From the sequence record OR352947.1: a stretch of 64,000 bases of DNA, one strand, 5' to 3'. The stretch is from Escherichia phage AV117. The position numbers and the translations under genes are program-made. Shown here in pieces: positions 440-62,541 of this stretch (position 1 is the stretch's first letter; every line of letters starts with the position of its first letter). The notes beneath the pieces are model-generated. The model was not told where the DNA came from. It saw nothing but the letters and a program-made list of their open reading frames with translations, and did not search any database.

Positions 440-1072
440 TCACAGTACGTTAGTTACAAGGGTAATGATTTCTTTGGACACATTAGGGAAGTCAATGTAA
501 GTATATTTACCACCGATCTTAATCTTAACATCATTTTCAAGAGAAGTAAACAGCTTTGATTCAGTTTCTGACATGTTGTATGCAAAGATTCTAAGAGAGC
601 CATTTCGACGAATTTCAATCTGACGAATACCTAGAACTCGTTTTGCAAATCGAACTTCTAAGTTACTACGGTTTTCACCAATTTCTTTAACTTCAACTTT
701 ATCTTTAATATTTTCAAAAACAAAGTTTGCTAATTCATGCATTTCAGGAGTAACTCCACGTGCTTTTCTAGTGTTACGTTTCTGAAGAAGTTCTGGAGCA
801 TTTTCTTGGGCAAAGAGGTCTGCAGCTTTTTGGATAATATCCATTGCTTCGCCTGTTGCTATAAGTCCATCACCAGATTTTTCGACTAAACCTTTCTTAA
901 TCAATACACCAATGTTAGAGTTAACAACCGATGCATTGTATTCCGCTTCCAGAGCTTCACGGACATTGGCAGCAGTGGCGAAGTTGTTCTTAATGATATA
1001 AACCATTATTGCAGCAGTTTTTTCATTCAGAGCGTTTTCGGAAGCTTTGATGATGTAAGCAACTTTAGACAT
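440..1072 (-). CDS. motA: middle transcription activator MotA
   Basis: 210 aa; N-terminus MSKVAYIIKAS...NSNIGVLIKKGLVEKSGDGLI matches my recollection of T4 MotA (211 aa); early promoter and GGAG RBS upstream. Confidence 0.88.
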   Translation of the reverse strand: MSKVAYIIKASENALNEKTAAIMVYIIKNNFATAANVREALEAEYNASVVNSNIGVLIKKGLVEKSGDGLIATGEAMDIIQKAADLFAQENAPELLQKRNTRKARGVTPEMHELANFVFENIKDKVEVKEIGENRSNLEVRFAKRVLGIRQIEIRRNGSLRIFAYNMSETESKLFTSLENDVKIKIGGKYTYIDFPNVSKEIITLVTNVL

Positions 1073-1100
1073 TTTATTTCTCCAAATTAGTATTTGTTTT

Positions 1101-1140
1101 GATAGGTCTATAATATCATGTTTGAAGCAAAAGTAAACTT
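1101..1140 (-). promoter_or_regulatory. T4-type early promoter (GTTTAC-N17-TATTAT) upstream of motA
   Basis: minus-strand reading GTTTAC TTTTGCTTCAAACATGA TATTAT AGACCTATC; approximate coordinates. Confidence 0.6.
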
Positions 1141-1175
1141 TATTTTGGGCTCTTTTTCAAAAGCCCTGGTAAAAT

Positions 1176-1391
1176 TTACAAACTCATTTCTTTAATAAGG
1201 CTAATAAGTTTTGCCTTTTTAGAACGAAGCTTTTCTAAATGATGTCCATTTGAACCGCGAACCACTAAAGAATTGATTTCAACTTCTAAGAAATTTAATT
1301 CTTCAACGAGTGCTTTACGTGGAGCATTCATACCAGGTTTAACTTTACCGAAACGAGTAGTTGTGTTTTGGGTTAATTTCATTTTAGACAT
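1176..1391 (-). CDS. hypothetical small basic protein (71 aa)
   Basis: ORF with near-identical promoter/RBS cassette to motA (start MSK...). Confidence 0.45.
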   Translation of the reverse strand: MSKMKLTQNTTTRFGKVKPGMNAPRKALVEELNFLEVEINSLVVRGSNGHHLEKLRSKKAKLISLIKEMSL

Positions 1392-1421
1392 TTTATTTCT
1401 CCAATTTGGTTGTTTTGTTTT

Positions 1422-1460
1422 GATAGGTCTATAATATCATGTTTGAAGCACATGTAAACT
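1422..1460 (-). promoter_or_regulatory. T4-type early promoter, near-duplicate of the motA promoter
   Basis: gataggtctataatatcatgtttgaagca...gtaaac repeated about 320 bp from the first copy; approximate. Confidence 0.6.
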
Positions 1461-1484
1461 GTTTTGTGAGAAAAATGCACAAAA

Positions 1485-1500
1485 GGGAGCCGAAGCTCCC
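1485..1500 (-). terminator. intrinsic terminator hairpin with UUCG tetraloop, downstream of gene 52
   Basis: gggagc-cgaa-gctccc on plus strand; on minus RNA followed by UUUUGUGCAUUUUU. Confidence 0.55.
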
Positions 1501-1576
1501 TAATCATGTTTGTCCAACCAATACAGCCAAATCACTAGTGCAGCTATTGCACCGAGAAATCCTAAGGCTAGGGCAC

Positions 1577-2902
1577 TCAAAGTGCCTCCAAGTCTTTAGT
1601 GTACTCTGTCACAACATCAGTAGACTTCCAATACTCATTTTCTTCTTTCTTAGCTTTAGCTTCTTCTGCCAGTTTACGCGCTTCGTCGGAAGTGATATGG
1701 AAGATGTTAAGACCTACAAGTTTATCGACATGTTCTTTATACATTTCGATTTGTGCCAGCTCTTCAGTCAAAGCTTTACGAGTCTTGCCCTGAATCACAA
1801 TTTCACCTGTAATAACTTTTTTGATGAAGTGTGCCTTAGCAAAAGCCAGTTTAAATGCTTTTTCAGATTCAAGGATTTTGTTGTCAATACGTTTCTGAAC
1901 GTAAGTCTTACGGACTTCAACAAAATCTTTGATTAAGTCCACTACGTTATCGTAGACAGCTAATTTACCCTTTTCATTAATCACTGTGATGTTTTGCGAA
2001 CGACGTTCGATGAGACTAAAATCTTTCATGATTTTTTCATGACGTAGCTCTTCATCATCAGGAAGCGAGTACTCTTTACGGAACTTCACCTTAAACCCAA
2101 AGCCGTGTTCACCGCAATCATCTTCCCATGAGATTAGACCTTTGTCTTCCAACGGGTCAAGAACCTTACTCACATACGTTTCACGGTCGAATTTATATGG
2201 GATTTCAGTTATCTGCATTTGAGTGCGAGATGTGAACTTATATGTTCCGTGAATCTCATAACGCCCATCAACTTCATGTACTTCACCACGGAATTCCGGA
2301 AATTCAACTTTTGGCTTAGTGACATTTTTACCTTGAAGAGCTTGTAATACAGCCTTTTTGACTGATTTAAAACTATGAGGCAGAATATTTGTTGCGTAAC
2401 CGGTTGCAATACCAGAGACGCCATTCAAAAGAACTGTCGGAATAATAGGAAGATAGAATTTTGGTGGAATGTGTTCTTTATCTTCATGAGCCGGAGCATA
2501 TTCAGTATCTTTATATACGTTATAGAAATTTTTACTTACACGAGCAAAAATATAACGAGATGCTGCAGCTTTTTGGACTGTTCGAGAACCAAAGTTGCCT
2601 TGGCCATCTAACAGTGGATAGTTGTTGTTCCATGTGTTAGCCATCAATGCACCTGCATCTTGTGCAGAAGATTCACCATGGTGATAACCTAAATCTGCAA
2701 CACCGCCTGCAATTGACGCAAGTTTATGAAATTTTTCTTTATTACCACGAGCCAAATCTAACGCACGATGAACCACAAAACGTTGAACCGGCTTAAATCC
2801 ATCAATCATGTTTGGGATTGCACGGTTTTCAACGGTGTACATCGCATATGCTAAGGCTTCGTTATCAATAATACTTTTTAGATTACGAGAATTCAATTGC
2901 AT
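1577..2902 (-). CDS. 52: DNA topoisomerase II medium subunit (gp52, GyrA-like)
   Basis: 441 aa, matching my recollection of T4 gp52 (442 aa); GyrA-type cleavage-domain motifs (PNMIDGFKPVQRFV, GNFGS); map position next to motA. Confidence 0.92.
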   Translation of the reverse strand: MQLNSRNLKSIIDNEALAYAMYTVENRAIPNMIDGFKPVQRFVVHRALDLARGNKEKFHKLASIAGGVADLGYHHGESSAQDAGALMANTWNNNYPLLDGQGNFGSRTVQKAAASRYIFARVSKNFYNVYKDTEYAPAHEDKEHIPPKFYLPIIPTVLLNGVSGIATGYATNILPHSFKSVKKAVLQALQGKNVTKPKVEFPEFRGEVHEVDGRYEIHGTYKFTSRTQMQITEIPYKFDRETYVSKVLDPLEDKGLISWEDDCGEHGFGFKVKFRKEYSLPDDEELRHEKIMKDFSLIERRSQNITVINEKGKLAVYDNVVDLIKDFVEVRKTYVQKRIDNKILESEKAFKLAFAKAHFIKKVITGEIVIQGKTRKALTEELAQIEMYKEHVDKLVGLNIFHITSDEARKLAEEAKAKKEENEYWKSTDVVTEYTKDLEAL

Positions 2903-4198: not shown

Positions 4199-4462
4199 TC
4201 ATATCTCAACTTCCGCGAGTTCCATATATCCTTTGTTGATAACCTCTTTAAGGTCTTTAGAAAGAATAACACTAAAATGGTCGTTCATGTGTCCATTAAC
4301 CAGACGAGTTATTTCGGCTTCAGATGACATATAAGGCACGTCTGAGTCCCAATGAGATAGACCCAAATGGGTATAAATCATCCCTTCGTCATCTGCAGTG
4401 TTGTACATTGAAACAAATTCGCCTGTTACTTTATGTTTTGCGTAGAAAAATTTAAATTTCAT
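4199..4462 (-). CDS. hypothetical protein (87 aa)
   Basis: ORF with GAGGA RBS and upstream early promoter. Confidence 0.5.
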   Translation of the reverse strand: MKFKFFYAKHKVTGEFVSMYNTADDEGMIYTHLGLSHWDSDVPYMSSEAEITRLVNGHMNDHFSVILSKDLKEVINKGYMELAEVEI

Positions 4463-4479
4463 GATGTTATCCTCTTTTA

Positions 4480-4518
4480 GATAGGACTACTATATCATAG
4501 TCCTACTTAGTTGTAAAC
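4480..4518 (-). promoter_or_regulatory. early promoter within the palindrome GGACTACTATATCATAGTCC
   Basis: GTTTAC-N18-TATAGT followed by AGTCCTATC then GAGGA RBS. Confidence 0.55.
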
Positions 4519-4530
4519 ACTTTTATGAAA

Positions 4531-5151
4531 TTAAAGTTGAAGATACCACCCGTTGTAGTTGCTCTTGCGGACGATTTTCTTTAGGTCTTCATGGTCTCCC
4601 ACGAACTTTATAGAATAAGAGAAGACGTCAGGTGAGGTTTCTTTGACATCTAATATAATAATGCAATCTGCGACTCTATGGTTCAAGAAGGGCCCTATAT
4701 TGATTCCATTACCACCCGGATAATCACCGCTGTATCCTGTGGTAACCGAAATCCATTTAGAATCTATCTGGTGTGTCTTGACTTCTACACGAATTCCACA
4801 ATACTTGGGGTGGGCCAACACGTCCCATGCATACGTGTACGGGTCTTCTACGTCTTCAATACCTTTATTAACATACCCGTCTAGCCAATTTGCTACTACA
4901 TACTCTGCAAAGACCGCAACCTTACAACGTCGAACTACATCTTCTTTGTTTTGGCCAGGATTTTGGCTCAGGGAATACCGAGCAGTGTCAGCAATCTTCA
5001 CCTTCATTTCACTAGTCAAAAACTCATTCGACAGGATAAATGTCGGAAGATTCTTCAGTCTCAACAGTCCCAAGTTCGTCTTTACCATAGATACCTCTGA
5101 TGTGTAGTTCGCCAAAATAAATGCGGTCACCTTCTTCAAGATATTCTGCAT
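4531..5151 (-). CDS. hypothetical protein, possible DenB-position nuclease
   Basis: 206 aa in the T4 denB map position; weak D...EVK pattern reminiscent of PD-(D/E)xK; true start probably internal. Confidence 0.35.
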   Translation of the reverse strand: MQNILKKVTAFILANYTSEVSMVKTNLGLLRLKNLPTFILSNEFLTSEMKVKIADTARYSLSQNPGQNKEDVVRRCKVAVFAEYVVANWLDGYVNKGIEDVEDPYTYAWDVLAHPKYCGIRVEVKTHQIDSKWISVTTGYSGDYPGGNGINIGPFLNHRVADCIIILDVKETSPDVFSYSIKFVGDHEDLKKIVRKSNYNGWYLQL

Positions 5152-9971: not shown

Positions 9972-11788
9972 TAGGACATCCATTCTTTACGAAGTTCTGA
10001 ATCATCACCCAACAACATTTCAAAGAGTTCTTTCCAATTTTCAGGAAGTTTAACTACGTCGTACACAGGGTTTTGAATCATTTCACGATATTCTGACTTT
10101 TCAAGTGAGCCCAATCCCTTGATGTATCGAATACTATGCTTAGGCAGTGTATCTTTAGCTTCTTCATACTCAGCTACAGTATAAAACCATTTTTGAGTTT
10201 TGCCAATTTGTGCAATAATTACAGGCGTTTTAACAAAGCGAATACGTCCTTGTTCAAACAATTCAGGCCAATTACTAAAGAAAGCAAGCAAAGCCGGATA
10301 AATACTTCCAAGACCGTCATGATCGGCATCGGTCATAATTGCAATATTACGATAGTTCGTATTCTCTGCCTTTTCACCAAGAATAAGACCTGTGATAGCA
10401 CAGATATCAAAGAGCTCTTTGTTCTTCATCATATCAGCATATGACATACCCCAGCTATTCATCACCTTACCACGTAATGGGAATCCACCGTGTAGTTCAC
10501 GGTCACGAACATCAATGAGATAACCAATTGCCGAATCACCTTCTGTTAAAAACAATGTCGTATCCGCATCTTTACCGCATTGGTTAGCTTTAATATGCTT
10601 ATGAACCTTAGCTTTAGTTGCCTTTTTAGCTGCTTTAGTTTCTGCAGCCTTTTCTGCTGCCAATTTACGAGCTAATGCTGCTTCAACAATAGGCATAATC
10701 AAGGCTTCGTTTTTAAGAAGTGCCTGAGCAATTTTCTTAGCATCTAATTGGATATGATTACGAATATCACCATACGTTGACGTTAAACGTTCTTTAGTCT
10801 GAGAATCAAAACGCATGTTGCTCATGTCTCTAATAAACATCAACATTGTGAGACATTCTTTAACACGAGCTTTAGTGACTTCAATACCCTTATATTTCTT
10901 TTTAATACCCGGCAAAAGATGTTCGCAGATATCATCCATTACACATTCAACATGATGACCACCATTTTTAGTATGGATGTTATTCACATAAGTTAAATGA
11001 CGGAAGCCGTCTGGTGATGTTGTGAATGCTATAGAGACTTTATCATTTTCTTGAATGATGTTATCTTCACCAAATTGTTTAGCAAATCGTTTAAAATTAC
11101 CATCAACCTTTTTACCATTAAATGTGAACTTGATATCAGGATAAACGACTGCCAATGTTTGAAGCCGGTCTAAAGTAATATCTAAATAAATTTGAGATAA
11201 ATTATGTTCTTCAAATGAAGAGAAATCAGGAGTGAAGATTACTTTAGTGCCTTTACCTTTAGATTTCTTAGAAGACCATGATTTGTTTTCCATCCCGTTT
11301 GAACAGTTAACAGTGATTTCATTTTCGCCATCTGACGTTATGCCTGTAAACAACGTAGAGAAGATATTAGTTAAACTACTCCCGACGCCGTTCATACCAC
11401 CGGTCTTACGTTCAGAGTCATCGCCAAAGTTACCACCAGCCTTTGGAATAGTCCAGGCTGCTACAGGCCCAGGAATTTGTTCACCTGTTTGGTCGGTAAC
11501 TAAACCTTGAGGAATACCACGTCCGTTATCTTCCACCGAAACTTGATTATTTTTAATTTGCACATCAATTTTATTTGCAAACTTAAATGATGTACGAATA
11601 GCTTCATCAACCGAGTTGTCAATAATCTCATCGATTAATTTAACCAGACCAGGAACATATTCAACTTGTTGATATTTACCAAACAAAAAACGTTCGTGGG
11701 CTTCTTTGGCCGAAGAACCAATATACATGCCACTTCGTTTCTTAATATGTTCTACATCTGACAATACCTTAATTTCATTTTTAATCAT
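9971..11788 (-). CDS. 39: DNA topoisomerase II large subunit (GyrB-like), fused gp39+gp60 form
   Basis: 605 aa; GHKL ATPase motifs (DNGRGIP, GGxxGxG-like) and TOPRIM; length equals the fused 39+60 subunit of non-T4 T-evens. Confidence 0.93.
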   Translation of the reverse strand: MIKNEIKVLSDVEHIKKRSGMYIGSSAKEAHERFLFGKYQQVEYVPGLVKLIDEIIDNSVDEAIRTSFKFANKIDVQIKNNQVSVEDNGRGIPQGLVTDQTGEQIPGPVAAWTIPKAGGNFGDDSERKTGGMNGVGSSLTNIFSTLFTGITSDGENEITVNCSNGMENKSWSSKKSKGKGTKVIFTPDFSSFEEHNLSQIYLDITLDRLQTLAVVYPDIKFTFNGKKVDGNFKRFAKQFGEDNIIQENDKVSIAFTTSPDGFRHLTYVNNIHTKNGGHHVECVMDDICEHLLPGIKKKYKGIEVTKARVKECLTMLMFIRDMSNMRFDSQTKERLTSTYGDIRNHIQLDAKKIAQALLKNEALIMPIVEAALARKLAAEKAAETKAAKKATKAKVHKHIKANQCGKDADTTLFLTEGDSAIGYLIDVRDRELHGGFPLRGKVMNSWGMSYADMMKNKELFDICAITGLILGEKAENTNYRNIAIMTDADHDGLGSIYPALLAFFSNWPELFEQGRIRFVKTPVIIAQIGKTQKWFYTVAEYEEAKDTLPKHSIRYIKGLGSLEKSEYREMIQNPVYDVVKLPENWKELFEMLLGDDSELRKEWMS

Positions 11789-20774: not shown

Positions 20775-21067
20775 TCAGAATAACTTGACCCAGAATCACC
20801 AGGCCAAGACGATACGTATGAATGATTATAATCGGAAGAGCTTGAAGCATTAACCTGTTTTGTTTTTGGACGAACAACTTCTTCCATCATTCCGTCGCCG
20901 ATATATTCCCAACTTTTTTCGTGTGTATCAGGAATAGGCATCATACCTTCGCCTGGTTTAACAGCAAACAACTTCTTCAGCATCGTAAGCATTAATTGTT
21001 CCTCGAACAAAACGAACACCACCATCGTCCCAACGAATTTCGGCATTAAATTTGACGTCTTCACCAT
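20744..21067 (-). CDS. hypothetical Ser-rich protein (start probably internal)
   Basis: C-terminal SSSSDYNHSYVSSWPGDSGSSYSDCGSSSGSCE; overlaps next ORF. Confidence 0.35.
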   Translation of the reverse strand: MVKTSNLMPKFVGTMVVFVLFEEQLMLTMLKKLFAVKPGEGMMPIPDTHEKSWEYIGDGMMEEVVRPKTKQVNASSSSDYNHSYVSSWPGDSGSSYSDCGSSSGSCE

Positions 21068-21224
21068 CCATCATGAATGAGTGTACGACTACATCATCAT
21101 AATATCCAAGACCGTATTTCAACGAAACTTCTTGAGCAATCAAAGCACCTAATGTGTTATTAGGTTTAATCCAGCGATTTAACATATTGTTCTCCTCTTG
21201 AGTAAGTAAAGAATATCTTAACAC
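20958..21224 (-). CDS. hypothetical protein (88 aa)
   Basis: ORF. Confidence 0.4.
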   Translation of the reverse strand: MLRYSLLTQEENNMLNRWIKPNNTLGALIAQEVSLKYGLGYYDDVVVHSFMMDGEDVKFNAEIRWDDGGVRFVRGTINAYDAEEVVCC

Positions 21225-21266
21225 AGTTTTTAGTGGTTGTAAACTGTAGGTAGAAACAAAAAAAAA

Positions 21267-21288
21267 AGGAATCCCGAAGGATTCCTTA
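21267..21288 (-). terminator. strong intrinsic terminator (UUCG tetraloop) after soc
   Basis: aggaatcc-cgaa-ggattcct; minus RNA followed by a run of about 10 U. Confidence 0.7.
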
Positions 21289-21294
21289 AATTAT

Positions 21295-21531
21295 TTAACC
21301 GCTTACTGGTGTAGGGGTAAACATTGCGGCATTCTTAGTTTTCCAATCAGCTGCGTCAGAAACTACAGTAGAATATGCTGCCTTTTCTGATGGAAAGATT
21401 TGGTAATGAGAATCCGCAATCCGATGTTCGTTTGAATAAATCTCAAACGGTACAGAAACTTCCATACCTTTAACTTCTTTGCCTTCACCCGCTGGATGAG
21501 TAAAGGTCTTGATGTTAACGAAACCACCCAT
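21295..21531 (-). CDS. soc: small outer capsid protein Soc
   Basis: 78 aa; YVNIKTF...HYQ.FPSEKAAYSTV matches my recollection of T4 Soc; late promoter immediately upstream. Confidence 0.85.
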   Translation of the reverse strand: MGGFVNIKTFTHPAGEGKEVKGMEVSVPFEIYSNEHRIADSHYQIFPSEKAAYSTVVSDAADWKTKNAAMFTPTPVSG

Positions 21532-21562
21532 AATTAACTCCTTTGTTGTTTAATTACAGGTG

Positions 21563-21570
21563 TATTTATA
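21563..21570 (-). promoter_or_regulatory. T4 late promoter TATAAATA upstream of soc
   Basis: tatttata on the plus strand (TATAAATA on the coding strand) about 32 nt before the soc ATG. Confidence 0.65.
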
Positions 21571-21577
21571 TCAGTAA

Positions 21578-22114
21578 TCAGTAACCATTATCCTGGCGTT
21601 CAAAGTTGTGTTGGTTTTTCAAGTAGTAAAGTTTAAAGATTTCTTCAGCGGAAAGACCAAGACCTTGGAACATATTCAGAACAAAGTGCAGAATATCAAT
21701 CATCTCGAATTTAATTTCGAGCTGGTCTTCAGGAGACAGTTCATCGATACGACGATTTCGATATTCAGCATGTTGAGCTTTCCAAGGCTTCCATACAGAG
21801 CTAGCGGCTTTTTCACCATTGCTCATACCACCGAGTGAAGTCAACAGTTCACGGAATTCATCATCAATATAATCTTTCTGATTACGCAGCCAATCAACAA
21901 CATCGCCAGCAGTGGCCAATTCGTCAGGATGTTTGTTATGTTCAGGCTTATCATTTGCCAGACGAATCTGTAAAGATTTCTGCATATCAAGCATTACCTG
22001 CAGAGGGTCTTTATCTTCATGAATCAGAGCATTAAAATAAGCTTCTTCTGCTTTATCAACACCAGAAATAAGTTGTGAACATTCGTTAAAGTGCGCCATT
22101 ATTTTTCCTTTCAA
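21578..22114 (-). CDS. 56: dCTPase/dUTPase (gp56, MazG-like dCTP pyrophosphatase)
   Basis: start probably MAHFNEC (as in T4 gp56); DKDPLQVMLDMQ...LANDK and C-terminal EIFKLYYLKN blocks match my recollection of T4 gp56. Confidence 0.88.
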   Translation of the reverse strand: MKGKIMAHFNECSQLISGVDKAEEAYFNALIHEDKDPLQVMLDMQKSLQIRLANDKPEHNKHPDELATAGDVVDWLRNQKDYIDDEFRELLTSLGGMSNGEKAASSVWKPWKAQHAEYRNRRIDELSPEDQLEIKFEMIDILHFVLNMFQGLGLSAEEIFKLYYLKNQHNFERQDNGY

Positions 22115-22189
22115 TTCAGTATAAGAGAGTTTAATTCTAACATTAATTTTATAAAGCGTAATAAATAATAAGGTAACTAAGGAGATATT

Positions 22190-22387
22190 ATGTTTAAACT
22201 TCCATCGTTAATCAACGCTATTAAAGGCAATAAAAAGAAAACTGCTATCGCTGCAATAGTTGTAGGTGGCATTATTTCATGGAACTTCGGGATTGCGCCA
22301 TTGTTAGTTGCCCATGGTGTTATGGTTCCTTCTGTTCCATTGGATACTGTAGTTGATTTAGCCTTTGCTATTATAGGGCTTGTCTAA
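22190..22387 (+). CDS. small membrane protein (65 aa), plus strand
   Basis: strong AAGGAG RBS 7 nt before ATG; two hydrophobic segments; sits in the 56-61 intergenic gap on the opposite strand. Confidence 0.5.
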   Translation: MFKLPSLINAIKGNKKKTAIAAIVVGGIISWNFGIAPLLVAHGVMVPSVPLDTVVDLAFAIIGLV

Positions 22388-23406
22388 ATCTTAGAATAAT
22401 GAGATAATCTCATTTTAGCATGCAACCCACTTGAAATATTCTGTTTCATATATTCTAAAATTTCTTGTGGTGTTGCATTTTCTTTCATTACCATATCATT
22501 CACATCCTTTGATCTCCACGGAGCTCGGTCCCAGAACATGACACGTTCGCCTGCATCAACTAATCGCTTCATGCGAGCTATAGTATCCGGATGCCTAGGT
22601 TCATTATCCATTACCCATACCCGACGTTCTTTAAATGGTACCACATCTAAATCTATTGAGCCGCCTGTAATAGCGATTGCATTGGGTATGAATAAACTAT
22701 CAATAGGGCCTTCCATCACCCAGACGTCTCCTTCCTTAACACGTTCAACACCATAAATTTTTGTTGCAGACTCAAACGCTTTAATAGTGATATATTTCTG
22801 AGGAGCATCTTTACGAAGTGCACGTCCTTGGAATGACTCAGCCTTCCCATCTTTATTAAAAATAGGAATCACTAAACGTGGTTCGGGAATCTCTTTCTTA
22901 TACGTACCAGGTTGAATCTTGTTGACCAATTTAGGCCATTCTAATGTGAACCATAATCTGTCCCATGATTCTTTAGGAATGCATCGAGACTTAACATATT
23001 TCACAATAGGATGCTCTTCAGGCAGCTTGTCCAGACGAGAACAAGACGGCAAAGAATTTATAGTCTTTTTCTCCGGTTCTGGTTTATGTTCAGGAACCTT
23101 TTCAATCTTTGGTTCCATTCTAGCTTTTTCTTTACGAACTTCCATTAGATATTCGCGGTAAAGCTCTTCATCATACTCTTTTAAGTATCCGGAAATTGTA
23201 TTGTGGTATTGACAATTATAGCAATGTACATTACCAGGAGTACCGCCATAATACCATCCGCGAGCTTTCATTGCATCTGTCTGGGAGTCGCCACAAACCG
23301 GACAACGAAATGTTAATTTAAATGTACTTGAATTATTGATTTGTCTAAAACGAGGGAGGTGAGAAAACGCACGATAAGCAAATTCATTATCTATCCATTC
23401 AGCCAT
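22384..23406 (-). CDS. 61: DNA primase (gp61)
   Basis: 340 aa; N-terminal zinc-binding CPVCGDS...CYNC; TOPRIM region; size and order as T4 gp61. Confidence 0.9.
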   Translation of the reverse strand: MAEWIDNEFAYRAFSHLPRFRQINNSSTFKLTFRCPVCGDSQTDAMKARGWYYGGTPGNVHCYNCQYHNTISGYLKEYDEELYREYLMEVRKEKARMEPKIEKVPEHKPEPEKKTINSLPSCSRLDKLPEEHPIVKYVKSRCIPKESWDRLWFTLEWPKLVNKIQPGTYKKEIPEPRLVIPIFNKDGKAESFQGRALRKDAPQKYITIKAFESATKIYGVERVKEGDVWVMEGPIDSLFIPNAIAITGGSIDLDVVPFKERRVWVMDNEPRHPDTIARMKRLVDAGERVMFWDRAPWRSKDVNDMVMKENATPQEILEYMKQNISSGLHAKMRLSHYSKI

Positions 23407-23445
23407 AGTATTCTCCAGAGGCCTTAAATTAATAAGGCCATCATA

Positions 23446-23940
23446 TCACAACTTATTAATATTTACTTTAATTCGCTTTCTTTTCTTGGAAGGAATTTGT
23501 TCTGGACCTTTATTTACGACTGCACCTGTAGTTGTTCCTGATGCAATAGCTTGAGGACTACCGCCTGAATCACCAGCAACCATATCCTCAAATAAAGGGA
23601 GTTCTTTAAATATTTCTTTCTGTTGTTCTTCCGTAATGTTATAGCGTGAAGCTACAGCACTCCAGGCAGACATCATTGAGGCCATTCCATTAAGACCTGG
23701 AACAGTGCTCATCATTCGCTTCATTGAACGAACTGAAGCATGAAAAGGTGTATACGCAGCTTTCTCTTCGGGAGTAGAAGGACGTTTAAGAACACTTCCA
23801 CGTTCATCGATGATTTTGGCTTCGTATGCTTTCCATTCGGTAAAAGGTTTTTGCATTAGTCGAATAAACTTATATGCGTAAACAGAATCTATTGCAGTGT
23901 TAATAATACCCATAGGTACCTCCTGAGTATATTTAATCAA
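23446..23940 (-). CDS. hypothetical protein with basic C-terminal tail
   Basis: 164 aa; C-terminal PSKKRKRIKVNINKL. Confidence 0.45.
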   Translation of the reverse strand: MIKYTQEVPMGIINTAIDSVYAYKFIRLMQKPFTEWKAYEAKIIDERGSVLKRPSTPEEKAAYTPFHASVRSMKRMMSTVPGLNGMASMMSAWSAVASRYNITEEQQKEIFKELPLFEDMVAGDSGGSPQAIASGTTTGAVVNKGPEQIPSKKRKRIKVNINKL

Positions 23941-51538: not shown

Positions 51539-53352
51539 TGGTGTTTAACCCTATGCATGATTTCTTTATTTTTGCCGAGATTAAATCCACGTTCATTCGG
51601 ATTTCCAAGATAACCGCATGTTCTTCTTATTGTGTTCATCTTTTTAGGATCAGTTTCTCCACAAATAGAACAAACAAATCCGTTTTCGGTAGGAGTCATT
51701 TCATGGGTACTTCCACACGTAAAACATTTATCTACTGGCATATTAACACCAAAATAATCTAAATGTTGCGCAGCATAATCCCAGACAGCCTCAAGACCTT
51801 TTAGGTTATTTTTCATATCAGGAAGTTCAACATAAGAAATGTGTCCACCGGTCGCAATGAAATGATATGGGGCTTCGCGAGAAATCTTTTCAAACGGAGT
51901 AATATTTTCTTCTACTGAAACGTGGAAACTATTAGTGTACCAGCCTTTATCAGTAACATCTTTTACACTTCCATATTTTTCGATATCAAGTTTACAGAAG
52001 CGATAGCACAGGTTTTCAGCAGGTGTAGAATACAAGCTAAAAGCAAAACCGGTTCTTTCGGTCCACTGCTTAAGACGAGCATTCATTTTAGTTAAAATTT
52101 CCTTTCCAATATCACGACCGACAAGAATATTCAATTCGTGAATACCAATGTATCCTAAGGACACTGAACTTCTACCGTTTTTAAATAACTCAATTATATC
52201 GTCCTCAGGTTTAAGACGAACCCCGAATGCACCTTCTTGGTAAAGAATAGGAGCAACAGTAGCTTTAACTCCTTTTAAGGAACTAATTCTACACATCAAA
52301 GCTTCAAAACACAGATCCATTCGTTCATTAAATAGCTCAACAAATTTCTGTTCATTGAATTGTGTTCCAATATAAGAATCTAACGCAATACGAGGAAGAT
52401 TCAGTGTTACAACACCAAGATTATTACGTCCATCAAGAATTTCATTACCGGTCGAATCTTTCCATACGCTCAAGAAACTACGGCAACCCATTGGAGAAAC
52501 AGGAACAGATGAACCGGTGATAGCTTTATTATTCTTAACTGAAATAATATCAGGATACATTCTTTTGCTTGCGCATTCTAAAGCAAGCTGCTTAATATCA
52601 TAGTTCGGGTCGTCTTTATAAAGATTGACACCCTCTTCAACGAACATAACAAGTTTAGGGAAAATAGGAGTTATTCCATCACGACCAAGACCTTTGATAC
52701 GATTTTTCAGAATTGCTTTCTGAATCATTCGTTCAGTCCAGTCAGTTCCCGTGCCAAATGTAATTGTTACAAAAGGCGTTTGTCCGTTTGAACTAAAGAG
52801 AGTATTTACTTCGTATTCATACGCTTGGAATGCATCGTATACGTCTTTTTCTGTTTTAGATTGGGCATAATTCAACGCATCAGCGATTTGCCATTTTTCT
52901 GCATCCTCAATATGTTTTGCATAGGTGCGTTTAACATAAGGAGAAAGTACTTTATCTACATTAGCAAAAGTCGTTCCGCCGTACTGATGTGAAGCAACTT
53001 GTGCAGTAATTTGTGCCATAATTGCAGTAGCAACGCCGATTGATTTAGGAGTTTCAATTTGAGCATTGCCTAATTTAAATCCATTCTCAAGCATCCCCTT
53101 TAAATCGACTAAACAGCAATTAGTAAATGGAAGAGCAGGAGAATAATCAATATCATGGAAATGGATAATTCCGCTTTCATGTGCTTTCATAATAAAAGAC
53201 GGGACCATATTTTTGGCAATGTGCTTAGACACAATACCAGCCATAAGGTCCCGTTGAGTTGGAAAAACACGAGAATCTTTATTAGCATTCTCGTTCAAAA
53301 GATCTTTATTAGTTTTATGAATTAATCCTTCAATTTCTTTTTCAATTTTCAT
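51535..53352 (-). CDS. nrdD: anaerobic ribonucleoside-triphosphate reductase NrdD
   Basis: 605 aa; C-terminal zinc-ribbon cysteines and glycyl-radical motif RRTCGYLG; uninterrupted (no intron). Confidence 0.95.
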   Translation of the reverse strand: MKIEKEIEGLIHKTNKDLLNENANKDSRVFPTQRDLMAGIVSKHIAKNMVPSFIMKAHESGIIHFHDIDYSPALPFTNCCLVDLKGMLENGFKLGNAQIETPKSIGVATAIMAQITAQVASHQYGGTTFANVDKVLSPYVKRTYAKHIEDAEKWQIADALNYAQSKTEKDVYDAFQAYEYEVNTLFSSNGQTPFVTITFGTGTDWTERMIQKAILKNRIKGLGRDGITPIFPKLVMFVEEGVNLYKDDPNYDIKQLALECASKRMYPDIISVKNNKAITGSSVPVSPMGCRSFLSVWKDSTGNEILDGRNNLGVVTLNLPRIALDSYIGTQFNEQKFVELFNERMDLCFEALMCRISSLKGVKATVAPILYQEGAFGVRLKPEDDIIELFKNGRSSVSLGYIGIHELNILVGRDIGKEILTKMNARLKQWTERTGFAFSLYSTPAENLCYRFCKLDIEKYGSVKDVTDKGWYTNSFHVSVEENITPFEKISREAPYHFIATGGHISYVELPDMKNNLKGLEAVWDYAAQHLDYFGVNMPVDKCFTCGSTHEMTPTENGFVCSICGETDPKKMNTIRRTCGYLGNPNERGFNLGKNKEIMHRVKHQ

Positions 53353-53822
53353 TTTAAACTCTTTCTAAGCTGCTTTTTGAATGAAGCTATTAATTGTGTT
53401 TTGGTATCAGATTCATTATATTCAAATCCTCTTTGAAGCATCTCAGCCATCATTTCCTCTTTACCTAGTCTTGAGAACTCTTTAGTTTTGTCTGGAACAA
53501 AATTAGGATGGATATTATTATCAGAATAATCTTGTTTCAAATAAGCAAGAAGAGCTTCAAGCCATTCGAGGTAGTCGACATCACGTCCTTTAAGACCGGA
53601 ACGGTTGAACTTATGCTTCATTTGACCTTCTGCTGCGTTGCACAGATTACAGAGTAACCCACGAACTCTACCGGCTTGTGGCCCGTTTAATTCGTGGTCG
53701 TGGTCAAGGTGGTTACCTTGAACATCAGGGTCTAATTCACGGTGGCAAATAGGACACTTACCGTTCTGTGCATCATAAAATTTTTGTTTTTCTTCTTTAT
53801 ATTTTGCGCCTGATAATAACAT
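53349..53822 (-). CDS. 49: endonuclease VII (gp49, Holliday junction resolvase)
   Basis: 157 aa; near-identical to T4 gp49 as I recall it (KEEKQKFYDAQNGKC.IC.REL...HLDHDHELNGP.AG.VRGLLCNLCNAAEGQMKHKF...LQRGFEYNESDTKTQLIASFKKQLRKSLK). Confidence 0.95.
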   Translation of the reverse strand: MLLSGAKYKEEKQKFYDAQNGKCPICHRELDPDVQGNHLDHDHELNGPQAGRVRGLLCNLCNAAEGQMKHKFNRSGLKGRDVDYLEWLEALLAYLKQDYSDNNIHPNFVPDKTKEFSRLGKEEMMAEMLQRGFEYNESDTKTQLIASFKKQLRKSLK

Positions 53823-53851: not shown

Positions 53852-53859
53852 TATTTATA
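53852..53859 (-). promoter_or_regulatory. T4 late promoter TATAAATA upstream of gene 49
   Basis: tatttata on the plus strand about 30 nt before the gene 49 ATG. Confidence 0.6.
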
Positions 53860-61256: not shown

Positions 61257-61520
61257 TTACTTATCGCACTTAGCAACATAATTAGGCATATCACAGAATA
61301 CGGAGCGAGTAACTACTCGGCCCTTTGACCATGCTTCAGTTGCTTGTCCGGCTGTGCTATTAATATAGCTTGATCTAATGTTCTCAATACCCTGAGAATG
61401 TGATGCATTTACAGAACCATTAGAAGTCCCAGAAGACTGGTTACTACCAGCTGCACCCGTGGTAGCACCAACAGAGAATGCCATCATTACTGCGAATAAA
61501 CCAATTACTAATTTTTTCAT
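61257..61520 (-). CDS. small secreted protein (87 aa) with signal peptide
   Basis: MKKLVIGLFAVMMAFSVGA signal sequence; Ser/Gly/Asn-rich mature region; C-terminal Cys pair; late promoter upstream. Confidence 0.5.
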   Translation of the reverse strand: MKKLVIGLFAVMMAFSVGATTGAAGSNQSSGTSNGSVNASHSQGIENIRSSYINSTAGQATEAWSKGRVVTRSVFCDMPNYVAKCDK

Positions 61521-61551
61521 ATTTACCTCAAGTTAATGGTTATTTATCTAC

Positions 61552-62541
61552 TTATTTATAGTAAGAATTATGATTTTCGAGATAGACTTGTTCAAGGAAG
61601 TCATCCCAGAAACTCATATCTACTTTTTGTTGCATACCGTTCTTGGCAGCTTGTTCTGACGCATGTTCAACTTGGTCAACGATATCTTCTAGGAATTCTT
61701 GAACAGTTTTAAACGTATGTTTACCAAGCTTAACATCGAGAATAAATGGAGCATCCTGAAGTGGGTAAACCAGGTCGCCTGTTTTGTAAATTTCCAATAA
61801 TTGAAGTCCACCACGACATGCATGACTCAATGCTTTCCAGTCAATACCTTCGTTAGCTTCTGCCTTACGAGCACGTTCACCATAGTTCTCTTCCAGTTTA
61901 ACCAGGATGGCATTGAACTCTTTATTGGTTAACGTGTCTTGGAATTTACGGTCTAACAGATTATAGAATGTTTGCTTACCTGTTTTCTCGTTTTCAGTTT
62001 CAACCCACGAAGCAAATTCACCTACAGGCAGAACATTCTTCATATGTGATAAACGAATTACCGCACCATTATCAAAGTATTGTCCCCATTCATTAGAACG
62101 TTTAAGGGCTTGACGAAGAACAGCCAGTCGAGAACCCTTGACACCGTATTTAGAAGCTTGCTTACGGACATACCCTAAATAAGATTTCATGTTAGTGGTA
62201 TAGAAACGAGACCTGTTATCTTGAATATACTTCCATACATCAGGCAAATCAGATTTAACTACTAAACTTGGTGGAGTGTGAAGCATATCTAATGCGACGG
62301 TTTCACCATCCGCCGCTAATTTAAAGAAATATTTGAGACTATACAACTCATGGTCTACGTCGTCTTTTGTGTTCTTAGAAGATGTGTTATTCGTGTTCTT
62401 GCTCATGTGTTCTTTAACGTTACCGGTCAAGATATCACGAGCGTGAGGGACATAAATTTCTTTAAAATCGACGTCAGATTCAGGAGTAGACGTTCCGTAA
62501 AGGTGGCTACCAAAGTAGCCTTTCATAATTGTTTTCATCAT
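61552..62541 (-). CDS. Pol-beta-superfamily nucleotidyltransferase-fold protein (329 aa)
   Basis: N-terminal GYFGSHLYGTSTPESDVDF (GS...[DE]x[DE] minimal NTase signature) with a downstream acidic residue (VALDML); helical C-terminal domain. Confidence 0.5.
   Translation of the reverse strand: MMKTIMKGYFGSHLYGTSTPESDVDFKEIYVPHARDILTGNVKEHMSKNTNNTSSKNTKDDVDHELYSLKYFFKLAADGETVALDMLHTPPSLVVKSDLPDVWKYIQDNRSRFYTTNMKSYLGYVRKQASKYGVKGSRLAVLRQALKRSNEWGQYFDNGAVIRLSHMKNVLPVGEFASWVETENEKTGKQTFYNLLDRKFQDTLTNKEFNAILVKLEENYGERARKAEANEGIDWKALSHACRGGLQLLEIYKTGDLVYPLQDAPFILDVKLGKHTFKTVQEFLEDIVDQVEHASEQAAKNGMQQKVDMSFWDDFLEQVYLENHNSYYK
61553..61560 (-). promoter_or_regulatory. T4 late promoter TATAAATA upstream of the secreted-protein gene
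   Basis: tatttata on the plus strand about 33 nt before the ATG at 61520. Confidence 0.5.

Follow-up and report, generated by a model that had tools for sequence, protein, structure and literature searches.

Why does one small gene in the early region of a T-even phage run against the direction of the genes around it? The question arises in a 64,000-nucleotide (nt) stretch of Escherichia phage AV117 (OR352947.1), here called the window, in which an open reading frame (ORF) at 22190..22387 on the plus strand opens with ATG, closes with TAA (22385-22387), and specifies a protein of 65 amino acids (aa), 6.7 kDa, and isoelectric point 9.8. An earlier inspection of the window's letters, which we call the sequence-only reading, had claimed a small membrane protein gene at this place, one of very few on its strand. 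The frame is present as claimed, and the rarity of plus-strand genes is borne out by the near-identical, annotated genome of phage SF, in which the ORF is the only one of 63 coding sequences across 42 kb on that strand; the other 62 lie on the early strand. The ORF had also been placed in the gap between genes 56 and 61, both on the minus strand. That order holds, except that the ORF reaches 4 nt beyond the gap, into the end of gene 61. Our answer to the opening question is that the ORF is probably a real, late-transcribed gene for a single-pass inner-membrane accessory protein.

The gene is already known as a member of the family phrog_2024 (PHROG label: unknown function) and is annotated as hypothetical in hundreds of genomes; names given to the ORF or its orthologs include RB69ORF029w, RB32ORF030w, KNT93_gp166 (phage SF), and AU097_gp010 (phage JD18). 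The match to the family profile is full length (ORF residues 1-65 against profile positions 1-65 of 65; E = 2.6e-27), and divergent orthologs of the JD18, IME08, and CJ20 types match the same profile with E values from 1e-24 to 1e-28. A tblastn search matched 692 phage records; in 685, a single piece covers 80% or more of the query. Identities are above 90% in Mosigvirus and near 55% in Tequatrovirus. The identical protein occurs on 156 contigs.

Substitution patterns across these orthologs point to constraint on the protein. Informative pairs gave a Nei-Gojobori ratio of nonsynonymous to synonymous substitution (dN/dS) of 0.09-0.27, and in an alignment of 13 sequences the variable columns at codon positions 1, 2, and 3 numbered 44, 19, and 56, position 2 being the least variable. 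As judged from these alignments, the codon-position pattern is that of a hydrophobic protein under purifying selection, and the ORF is a genuine protein-coding gene under such selection.

Outside its own family the protein has no detectable relatives in the collections searched. Among 1.84 billion representative proteins, a profile search retrieved six representatives, all from the same family, which indicates that the family is confined to this phage group; a word-indexed homolog search found close relatives only. Scans of the protein against Pfam and NCBIfam gave no match, and PADLOC models matched none of four family members at E values up to 10. A profile search against PDB sequences returned nothing below E = 1, so the protein appears to be absent from solved T4 structures. 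Foldseek against BFVD recovered orthologs only, one of which carries the automatic name "Holin." Named members are otherwise called "hypothetical protein," apart from a UniRef entry "Holin" (the OE5505 ortholog) and a GenBank entry "putative membrane protein" (KpnM6E1). The UniRef label belongs to 1 of about 30 named members among those listed, and the name of the OE5505 ortholog looks automatic.

Orthologs in the same place and orientation occur in T4 and RB51 (Tequatrovirus), CJ20 (Gaprivervirus), Yersinia phage P8, IME08 and NC-G (Dhakavirus), JD18 (Jiaodavirus), Merlin (Moonvirus), and STP4-a (Gelderlandvirus). The window DNA itself is of Mosigvirus (RB69-like) type, with 99% identity to phage LNA2 over 2 kb and 97-98% to many others, and across these seven genera (Mosig-, Tequatro-, Gapriver-, Dhaka-, Jiaoda-, Moon-, and Gelderlandvirus) the ORF adjoins gene 61 on the opposite strand, tail to tail. 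In the window the two stops converge in a 4-nt overlap (22384..22387), formed by the TAA of the ORF and the minus-strand TAG of gene 61 at 22386-22384. The overlap recurs in T4, RB51, IME08, Merlin, and STP4-a; in P8 and CJ20, 120-850 nt separate the ORF from gene 61. The frame has stayed intact despite insertions at its flanks—dam in T4, mobE in IME08, and a homing endonuclease in P8. It is absent from Slopekvirus KP27 and from a Krischvirus, in which gene 61 abuts gene 56. The gene is conserved across the subfamily Tevenvirinae, and it is accessory.

Some of these copies have gone without annotation. The T4 ortholog is intact and encodes 66 aa (NC_000866.4, 17738..17938, plus strand), and the reference record does not annotate it. 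The IME08 ortholog (HM071924), likewise intact, 66 aa long, and unannotated, lies at 1077..1277 of the examined locus, on its minus strand. Both sit next to gene 61 in seemingly "empty" gaps about 300 nt long, whose other border is dam in T4 and mobE in IME08.

Altered copies occur as well. In NC-G (MK310184), two tandem divergent copies occupy 1216..1665 of the examined locus. Copy 1 is of IME08 type and is frameshifted after about 25 codons, its remainder being readable in another frame; copy 2 is an intact Mosigvirus-type gene whose ATG overlaps the stop of copy 1. Either one allele is in the course of replacing another here, or a T-run was misread in sequencing. In phage a48 (583..708 of the examined locus), a 1-nt deletion in an A-run, which may be a sequencing error, cuts the annotated ORF to 41 aa.

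How would such a gene be expressed from the strand opposite to its neighbors? The ATG is preceded by a strong Shine-Dalgarno (SD) element, AAGGAG, at 22179..22184 on the plus strand; the sequence-only reading was right about this site, and its spacing, read from the sequence, is 5 nt, not the 7 nt given there. Across ten aligned ortholog upstream regions, the only near-invariant columns are AGGAG(G) and the ATG itself. Farther upstream, at 22160..22167 on the same strand, is AATAAATA, a box of the T4 gp55 type with A for T at −13. It starts 30 nt and ends 22 nt before the ATG, which confirms the late-promoter-like sequence that had been noticed about 30 nt upstream, and it agrees with the late-promoter consensus TATAAATA at seven of eight positions. 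The T4 late promoter consists of this 8-bp TATAAATA box, perfect at 32 of 50 catalogued sites, and among its natural variants A at −13 is the most frequent, with 9 of the 50 (PMC2988020). Its identity with that variant, its uniqueness in the window, and the conservation of its ATAAATA core before orthologs make AATAAATA a credible late promoter.

The uniqueness is set against a window depleted of such boxes. Counting both strands of the 64 kb, AATAAATA occurs once, in front of the ORF. Perfect TATAAATA boxes number 3 against 7.1 expected, VATAAATA 3 against 20.6, and NATAAATA 6 against about 28. The six NATAAATA sites lie at 21563-21570, 53852-53859, 61553-61560, and 61541-61548 on the minus strand and at 10297-10304 and 22160-22167 on the plus strand. 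All three perfect TATAAATA boxes stand 29-31 nt upstream of minus-strand ATGs, those of soc (ATG 21531), an endonuclease-VII-like ORF (53349..53822), and an 87-aa ORF (61257..61520).

The ATAAATA core recurs 12-33 nt before the ortholog ATGs of T4, RB51, CJ20, P8, IME08, NC-G, and JD18. T4 has GATAAATA at 21 nt from the ATG; RB51 has the same AATAAATA as the window, at 22 nt; CJ20 and P8 have CATAAATA at 16 nt; and IME08 has a perfect TATAAATA at 21 nt. In NC-G, CATAAATA precedes the first of the two tandem copies, and JD18 has both GATAAATA and CATAAATA, at 33 and 12 nt. Merlin and STP4-a have ATTAAATA only, 14-15 nt from the ATG. Sites of the form NATAAATA thus stand before orthologs in five genera (Mosig-, Tequatro-, Gapriver-, Dhaka-, and Jiaodavirus), and ATAAATA is retained in three different Tequatrovirus upstream contexts. 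In T4, early and middle transcripts share one polarity, and late transcripts alone use both strands (PMC2988020). Because early and middle transcription is confined to the other strand, the gene should be transcribable only late.

The late box has a close neighbor facing the other way. At 22134..22158 on the minus strand is a middle-promoter-like element for gene 56, composed of CGCTTTA (22158-22152), which we take to be MotA-box-like, a 12-nt spacer, and the −10 sequence TAGAAT (22139-22134). Judging by these elements, it is likely the middle promoter for gene 56. Only 1 nt separates it from the late box, with which it stands back to back, so early/middle and late promoters would diverge from a core of about 35 bp. 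Perfect TGCTTTA boxes occupy the equivalent gap in RB51 and IME08. We considered that ATAAATA might be kept merely as part of the gene-56 middle promoter and rejected this explanation: The order of MotA box and late box in RB51 is reversed relative to the window, and in T4 dam lies between ATAAATA and gene 56, and ATAAATA persists. These two observations tie the conservation of the late box to the ORF and not to the gene-56 promoter. The T4 gene-56 transcript primes the replication origin oriA (note in record NC_000866).

A terminator scan of 21400-23500 found no terminator-like site, so a late transcript would run antisense into gene 61. In JD18, a GC-rich hairpin, GGGGCttcgGCCCC, separates the stops of the ORF and gene 61 (1726..1745 of the examined locus) and, from its sequence, may be a bidirectional terminator; this hairpin is lacking in the Mosigvirus window and in T4. 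Rfam models gave chance snoRNA-level matches only on 21000-23600, and folding of the putative mRNA revealed no unusual structure (z = −0.74).

What kind of protein would this transcript deliver? The product is strongly hydrophobic (GRAVY hydropathy 1.2), and its description as a small membrane protein is supported by a hydrophobic helix at about residues 18-41. AlphaFold2, run on a 15-sequence alignment, gave a mean pLDDT of 82; the model has three helices (3-11, 15-41, and 51-61), the last two joined by a proline-rich loop (42-50). Residues 1-17 (22190..22240, plus strand) would form a cytoplasmic part, with the amphipathic helix 3-11 followed by the basic cluster KGNKKK; these 17 residues hold five Lys and no acidic residue, and in T-even members the charge before the hydrophobic core is +5/0. 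Residues 18-41 (22241..22312, plus strand) form the transmembrane helix predicted by hydropathy and by the modeled helix 15-41, with invariant W31-N32-F33 and P37. Residues 42-65 (22313..22384, plus strand), a presumed periplasmic tail, contain an H-G-x3-P-x3-[LM]-[DE] turn and the short amphipathic helix 51-61 with D52 and D56. The last 23 residues include two Asp and no basic residue and end in hydrophobic GLV; across lineages the tail charge is −1 to −2 in most and neutral in JD18 and STP4-a.

These features bear on how many times the chain crosses the membrane. The sequence-only reading had described two hydrophobic helices, of which the long one stands and the other, an 11-residue C-terminal helix with two Asp, does not qualify as a transmembrane helix. 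On a simplified insertion scale, the best 19-residue window sums to about −3 to +4 kcal/mol and the tail to +5 to +13 kcal/mol across the family. We therefore rejected a two-transmembrane hairpin, helix 51-61 being too short and too polar, with this tail sum, to span the membrane alone. On the model, the most likely topology is one transmembrane helix with the N terminus in the cytoplasm and the short, acidic, amphipathic tail in the periplasm. The core conserved across the seven genera, W-N-[FYL]-x3-P-x-A-x-[AS]-[HQY]-G-x3-P-x3-[LM]-[DE], extends from the outer half of the helix into the interface region. Its residues—WNF in the membrane and H-G-x3-P-x3-L-D/E at the outer interface—resemble, in their pattern of conservation, a site where a second membrane protein would bind more than the lining of a pore.

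A viable, genome-reduced T4 derivative bears on whether the protein is needed. In T4_583L (MZ375356), two lesions read from the deposited sequence (511..790 of the examined locus) affect the ortholog: a 2-nt deletion that shifts the frame after residue 22 and a 4-nt deletion between the SD and the ATG. The burst size of T4_583L is 109, compared with 120 for the wild type (PMC9825161). Because a viable phage carries the frameshifted ortholog, the gene is accessory and not needed on the laboratory host.

Combining promoter and topology, the proposed course of events would be as follows. With gp55/gp33 bound and the gp45 sliding clamp as activator, RNA polymerase would transcribe the gene late from AATAAATA (22160-22167), with a start that we infer near G22173 and a leader of about 17 nt; boxes of this type lie about one helical turn ahead of the start. 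The 65-residue product would insert in the inner membrane with its basic N terminus (+5) in the cytoplasm, one transmembrane helix (~18-41) crossing, and the 24-residue acidic tail in the periplasm, where its short amphipathic helix would rest at the membrane surface. As to what the protein does there, we tentatively suggest a non-essential modulator of a late envelope event, acting on lysis timing or lysis inhibition through holin T or the antiholins, or on membrane integrity until lysis. A bolder and more speculative form of this proposal takes phrog_2024 as a whole to be an overlooked late envelope component that tunes holin T or the RI/RIII antiholins, and with them lysis timing and lysis inhibition, or that protects the energized membrane.

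Several observations weigh against a late-transcribed membrane protein with such a role. The promoter box of the ORF is a variant, not the consensus, and Moonvirus and Gelderlandvirus have ATTAAATA only. The insertion sums of the transmembrane helix are borderline in several lineages, reaching +3.6 kcal/mol on the simplified scale. The ORF is not adjacent to t, rI, rIII, or spanin genes and has no homology to them. The T4_583L frameshift shows dispensability in one laboratory host and in a multiply deleted background only, and the searchable literature yielded no transcript 5′ end, ribosome footprint, or peptide for the ORF.

Those same gaps in the record are what a spurious or unexpressed frame filling an intergenic spacer would explain, as would the missing annotation in the T4 reference and in IME08. 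Such an account is nevertheless highly improbable: The frame has been kept across seven genera at identities of 45-55% or lower, with dN/dS well below 1 and with both SD and promoter box conserved. A role at the RNA level asks less of the protein. Here an unterminated late transcript antisense to gene 61 would help to shut off primase and the read-through 61-56 early mRNA late in infection, the peptide being secondary, and the convergent overlapping stops and the lack of a terminator-like site agree with this. The strong purifying selection on amino acids and the conserved SD speak against it, as do the hairpin directly after the ORF in JD18, the 120-850 nt between ORF and gene 61 in P8 and CJ20, and the absence of special structure in the plus-strand RNA (z = −0.74); we consider it unlikely as the principal function, and antisense and protein roles are mutually compatible. 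Much the same standing belongs to a membrane-bound assembly helper acting late, which might for example help to initiate proheads or to attach baseplates at the inner membrane. The T4 prohead begins its assembly on that membrane, and the inferred late timing and location there would suit such a helper, but burst size is near normal without the ORF, no solved T4 structure chain matches, and nothing links the gene to assembly genes, which leaves this explanation improbable too.

Two further readings concern what a small phage membrane protein commonly does, the sequence-only reading having named lysis, superinfection exclusion, and anti-defense for those of T-even phages. Superinfection exclusion (a block on the entry of secondary phage DNA) or anti-defense against a late-firing, membrane-associated host system is suggested by the surroundings: sp, imm, and dmd lie within 3 kb of the ORF, imm and sp being separate genes about 1.5-2 kb away in the SF annotation. 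An accessory gene that is dispensable in the laboratory also has traits typical of host-interaction genes. Yet the known T-even genes of this kind are early and on the other strand, whereas the ORF would be late only; PADLOC, Pfam, and NCBIfam gave no match; and the sequence does not diversify rapidly but is kept fairly constant (dN/dS ~0.2) among genera that infect different hosts. We regard exclusion or anti-defense as doubtful, and late timing fits a lysis-related role better than either classical early activity. Direct action in lysis, as a holin- or pinholin-like pore former or a membrane-depolarizing peptide, is a different matter. The protein is small, hydrophobic, and presumably late; it has the one or more transmembrane domains of a holin in its helix at ~18-41; the OE5505 ortholog bears the name "Holin"; and positions 52 and 56, conserved as polar or acidic residues, might face the lumen of an oligomeric channel. 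Against this, it lacks a basic or charged C-terminal cytoplasmic tail, its basic cluster being N-terminal; its second segment is too short to span the membrane; it lies outside any lysis cassette, flanked by dCTPase and primase in every genome examined; and a near-normal burst is reached without it. T-even phages, moreover, already have the holin T. A pore-forming role is decidedly unlikely.

Comparison with characterized systems places the late-transcribed, single-pass protein that we favor more closely. T4 soc and gene 49 are, like the ORF, late-promoter genes within the early region, with a TATAAATA-type box about 20-30 nt before the ATG. The soc and gene-49-like ORFs of the window have perfect boxes, whereas the ORF has the A(−13) variant; and soc and 49 are on the early strand, where early read-through can reach them, whereas on the opposite strand late promoters are the sole route. 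Class II holins and pinholins (phage 21 S68, T7 gp17.5) share with the ORF product a length of 60-70 aa, hydrophobicity, presumed late timing, and the inner membrane. They have two full transmembrane domains, a charged C-terminal tail, and a place in lysis cassettes, in contrast to the one credible transmembrane helix, basic N terminus, hydrophobic acidic C terminus, and location among replication genes seen here, and no sequence similarity to them was found. T4 Imm, Sp (spackle), and the antiholin RI are also small accessory proteins of the inner membrane or periplasm, and they act by envelope protein contacts. Their genes lie on the early strand, unlike the ORF, and RI and Sp are exported by signal or signal-anchor-release (SAR) sequences, whereas the ORF product is predicted to be anchored by an N-in transmembrane helix; no homology to the three is detectable (PHROGs matching phrog_2024 only, Pfam, and the 1.84-billion-representative profile search). 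Type I toxins such as Hok and TisB offer a last likeness in their short basic segment, single transmembrane helix, and a transcript overlapping a convergent RNA. The ORF product differs in being longer, in its conserved extracytoplasmic motif, and in being encoded by a phage late gene with no dedicated antisense regulator evident.

The flanking genes are those expected of the early region. Gene 56 (dCTPase/dUTPase; early/middle) occupies 21578..22099 on the minus strand, as supported by phrog_173 (E = 4e-45), Pfam dUTPase_2, and the SF annotation. Its start is a conserved ATG at 22099 with an SD (173 aa, as in SF); the ORF list had given a TTG at 22114. Gene 61 (DNA primase; early) occupies 22384..23406 on the minus strand (phrog_47, E = 5e-101; SF annotation). 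Beyond gene 61, CJ20 carries a second opposite-strand ORF, CJ20_018, of 137 aa (4361..4774, plus strand of the examined locus).

Two of the other promoter-like boxes in the window also deserve mention. The GATAAATA at 10297 lies antisense within the topoisomerase gene and has no ORF behind it. The minus-strand 87-aa ORF at 61257..61520 has both a perfect TATAAATA and a GATAAATA upstream and an N-terminal, signal-peptide-like segment, MKKLVIGLFAVMMAFSVGA; by these features it may be another late-expressed small envelope protein.

With no other gene on its strand in some 40 kb of early region, the ORF offers a clean example of a late gene with late promoters only. It encodes a small membrane protein conserved subfamily-wide, and proteins of this class have repeatedly been found to control lysis or host interactions. 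Because NC_000866.4 omits the ortholog, screens, transcriptomes, and proteomes that start from the T4 annotation are blind to it; some other records omit it too. This omission, and a subfamily-wide, presumably late membrane protein still listed as hypothetical, are the fresh angles that the locus provides. If the late-envelope reading is true, 60 years of T4 genetics may have passed the gene by, since it is absent from the T4 reference annotation and dispensable on laboratory hosts.

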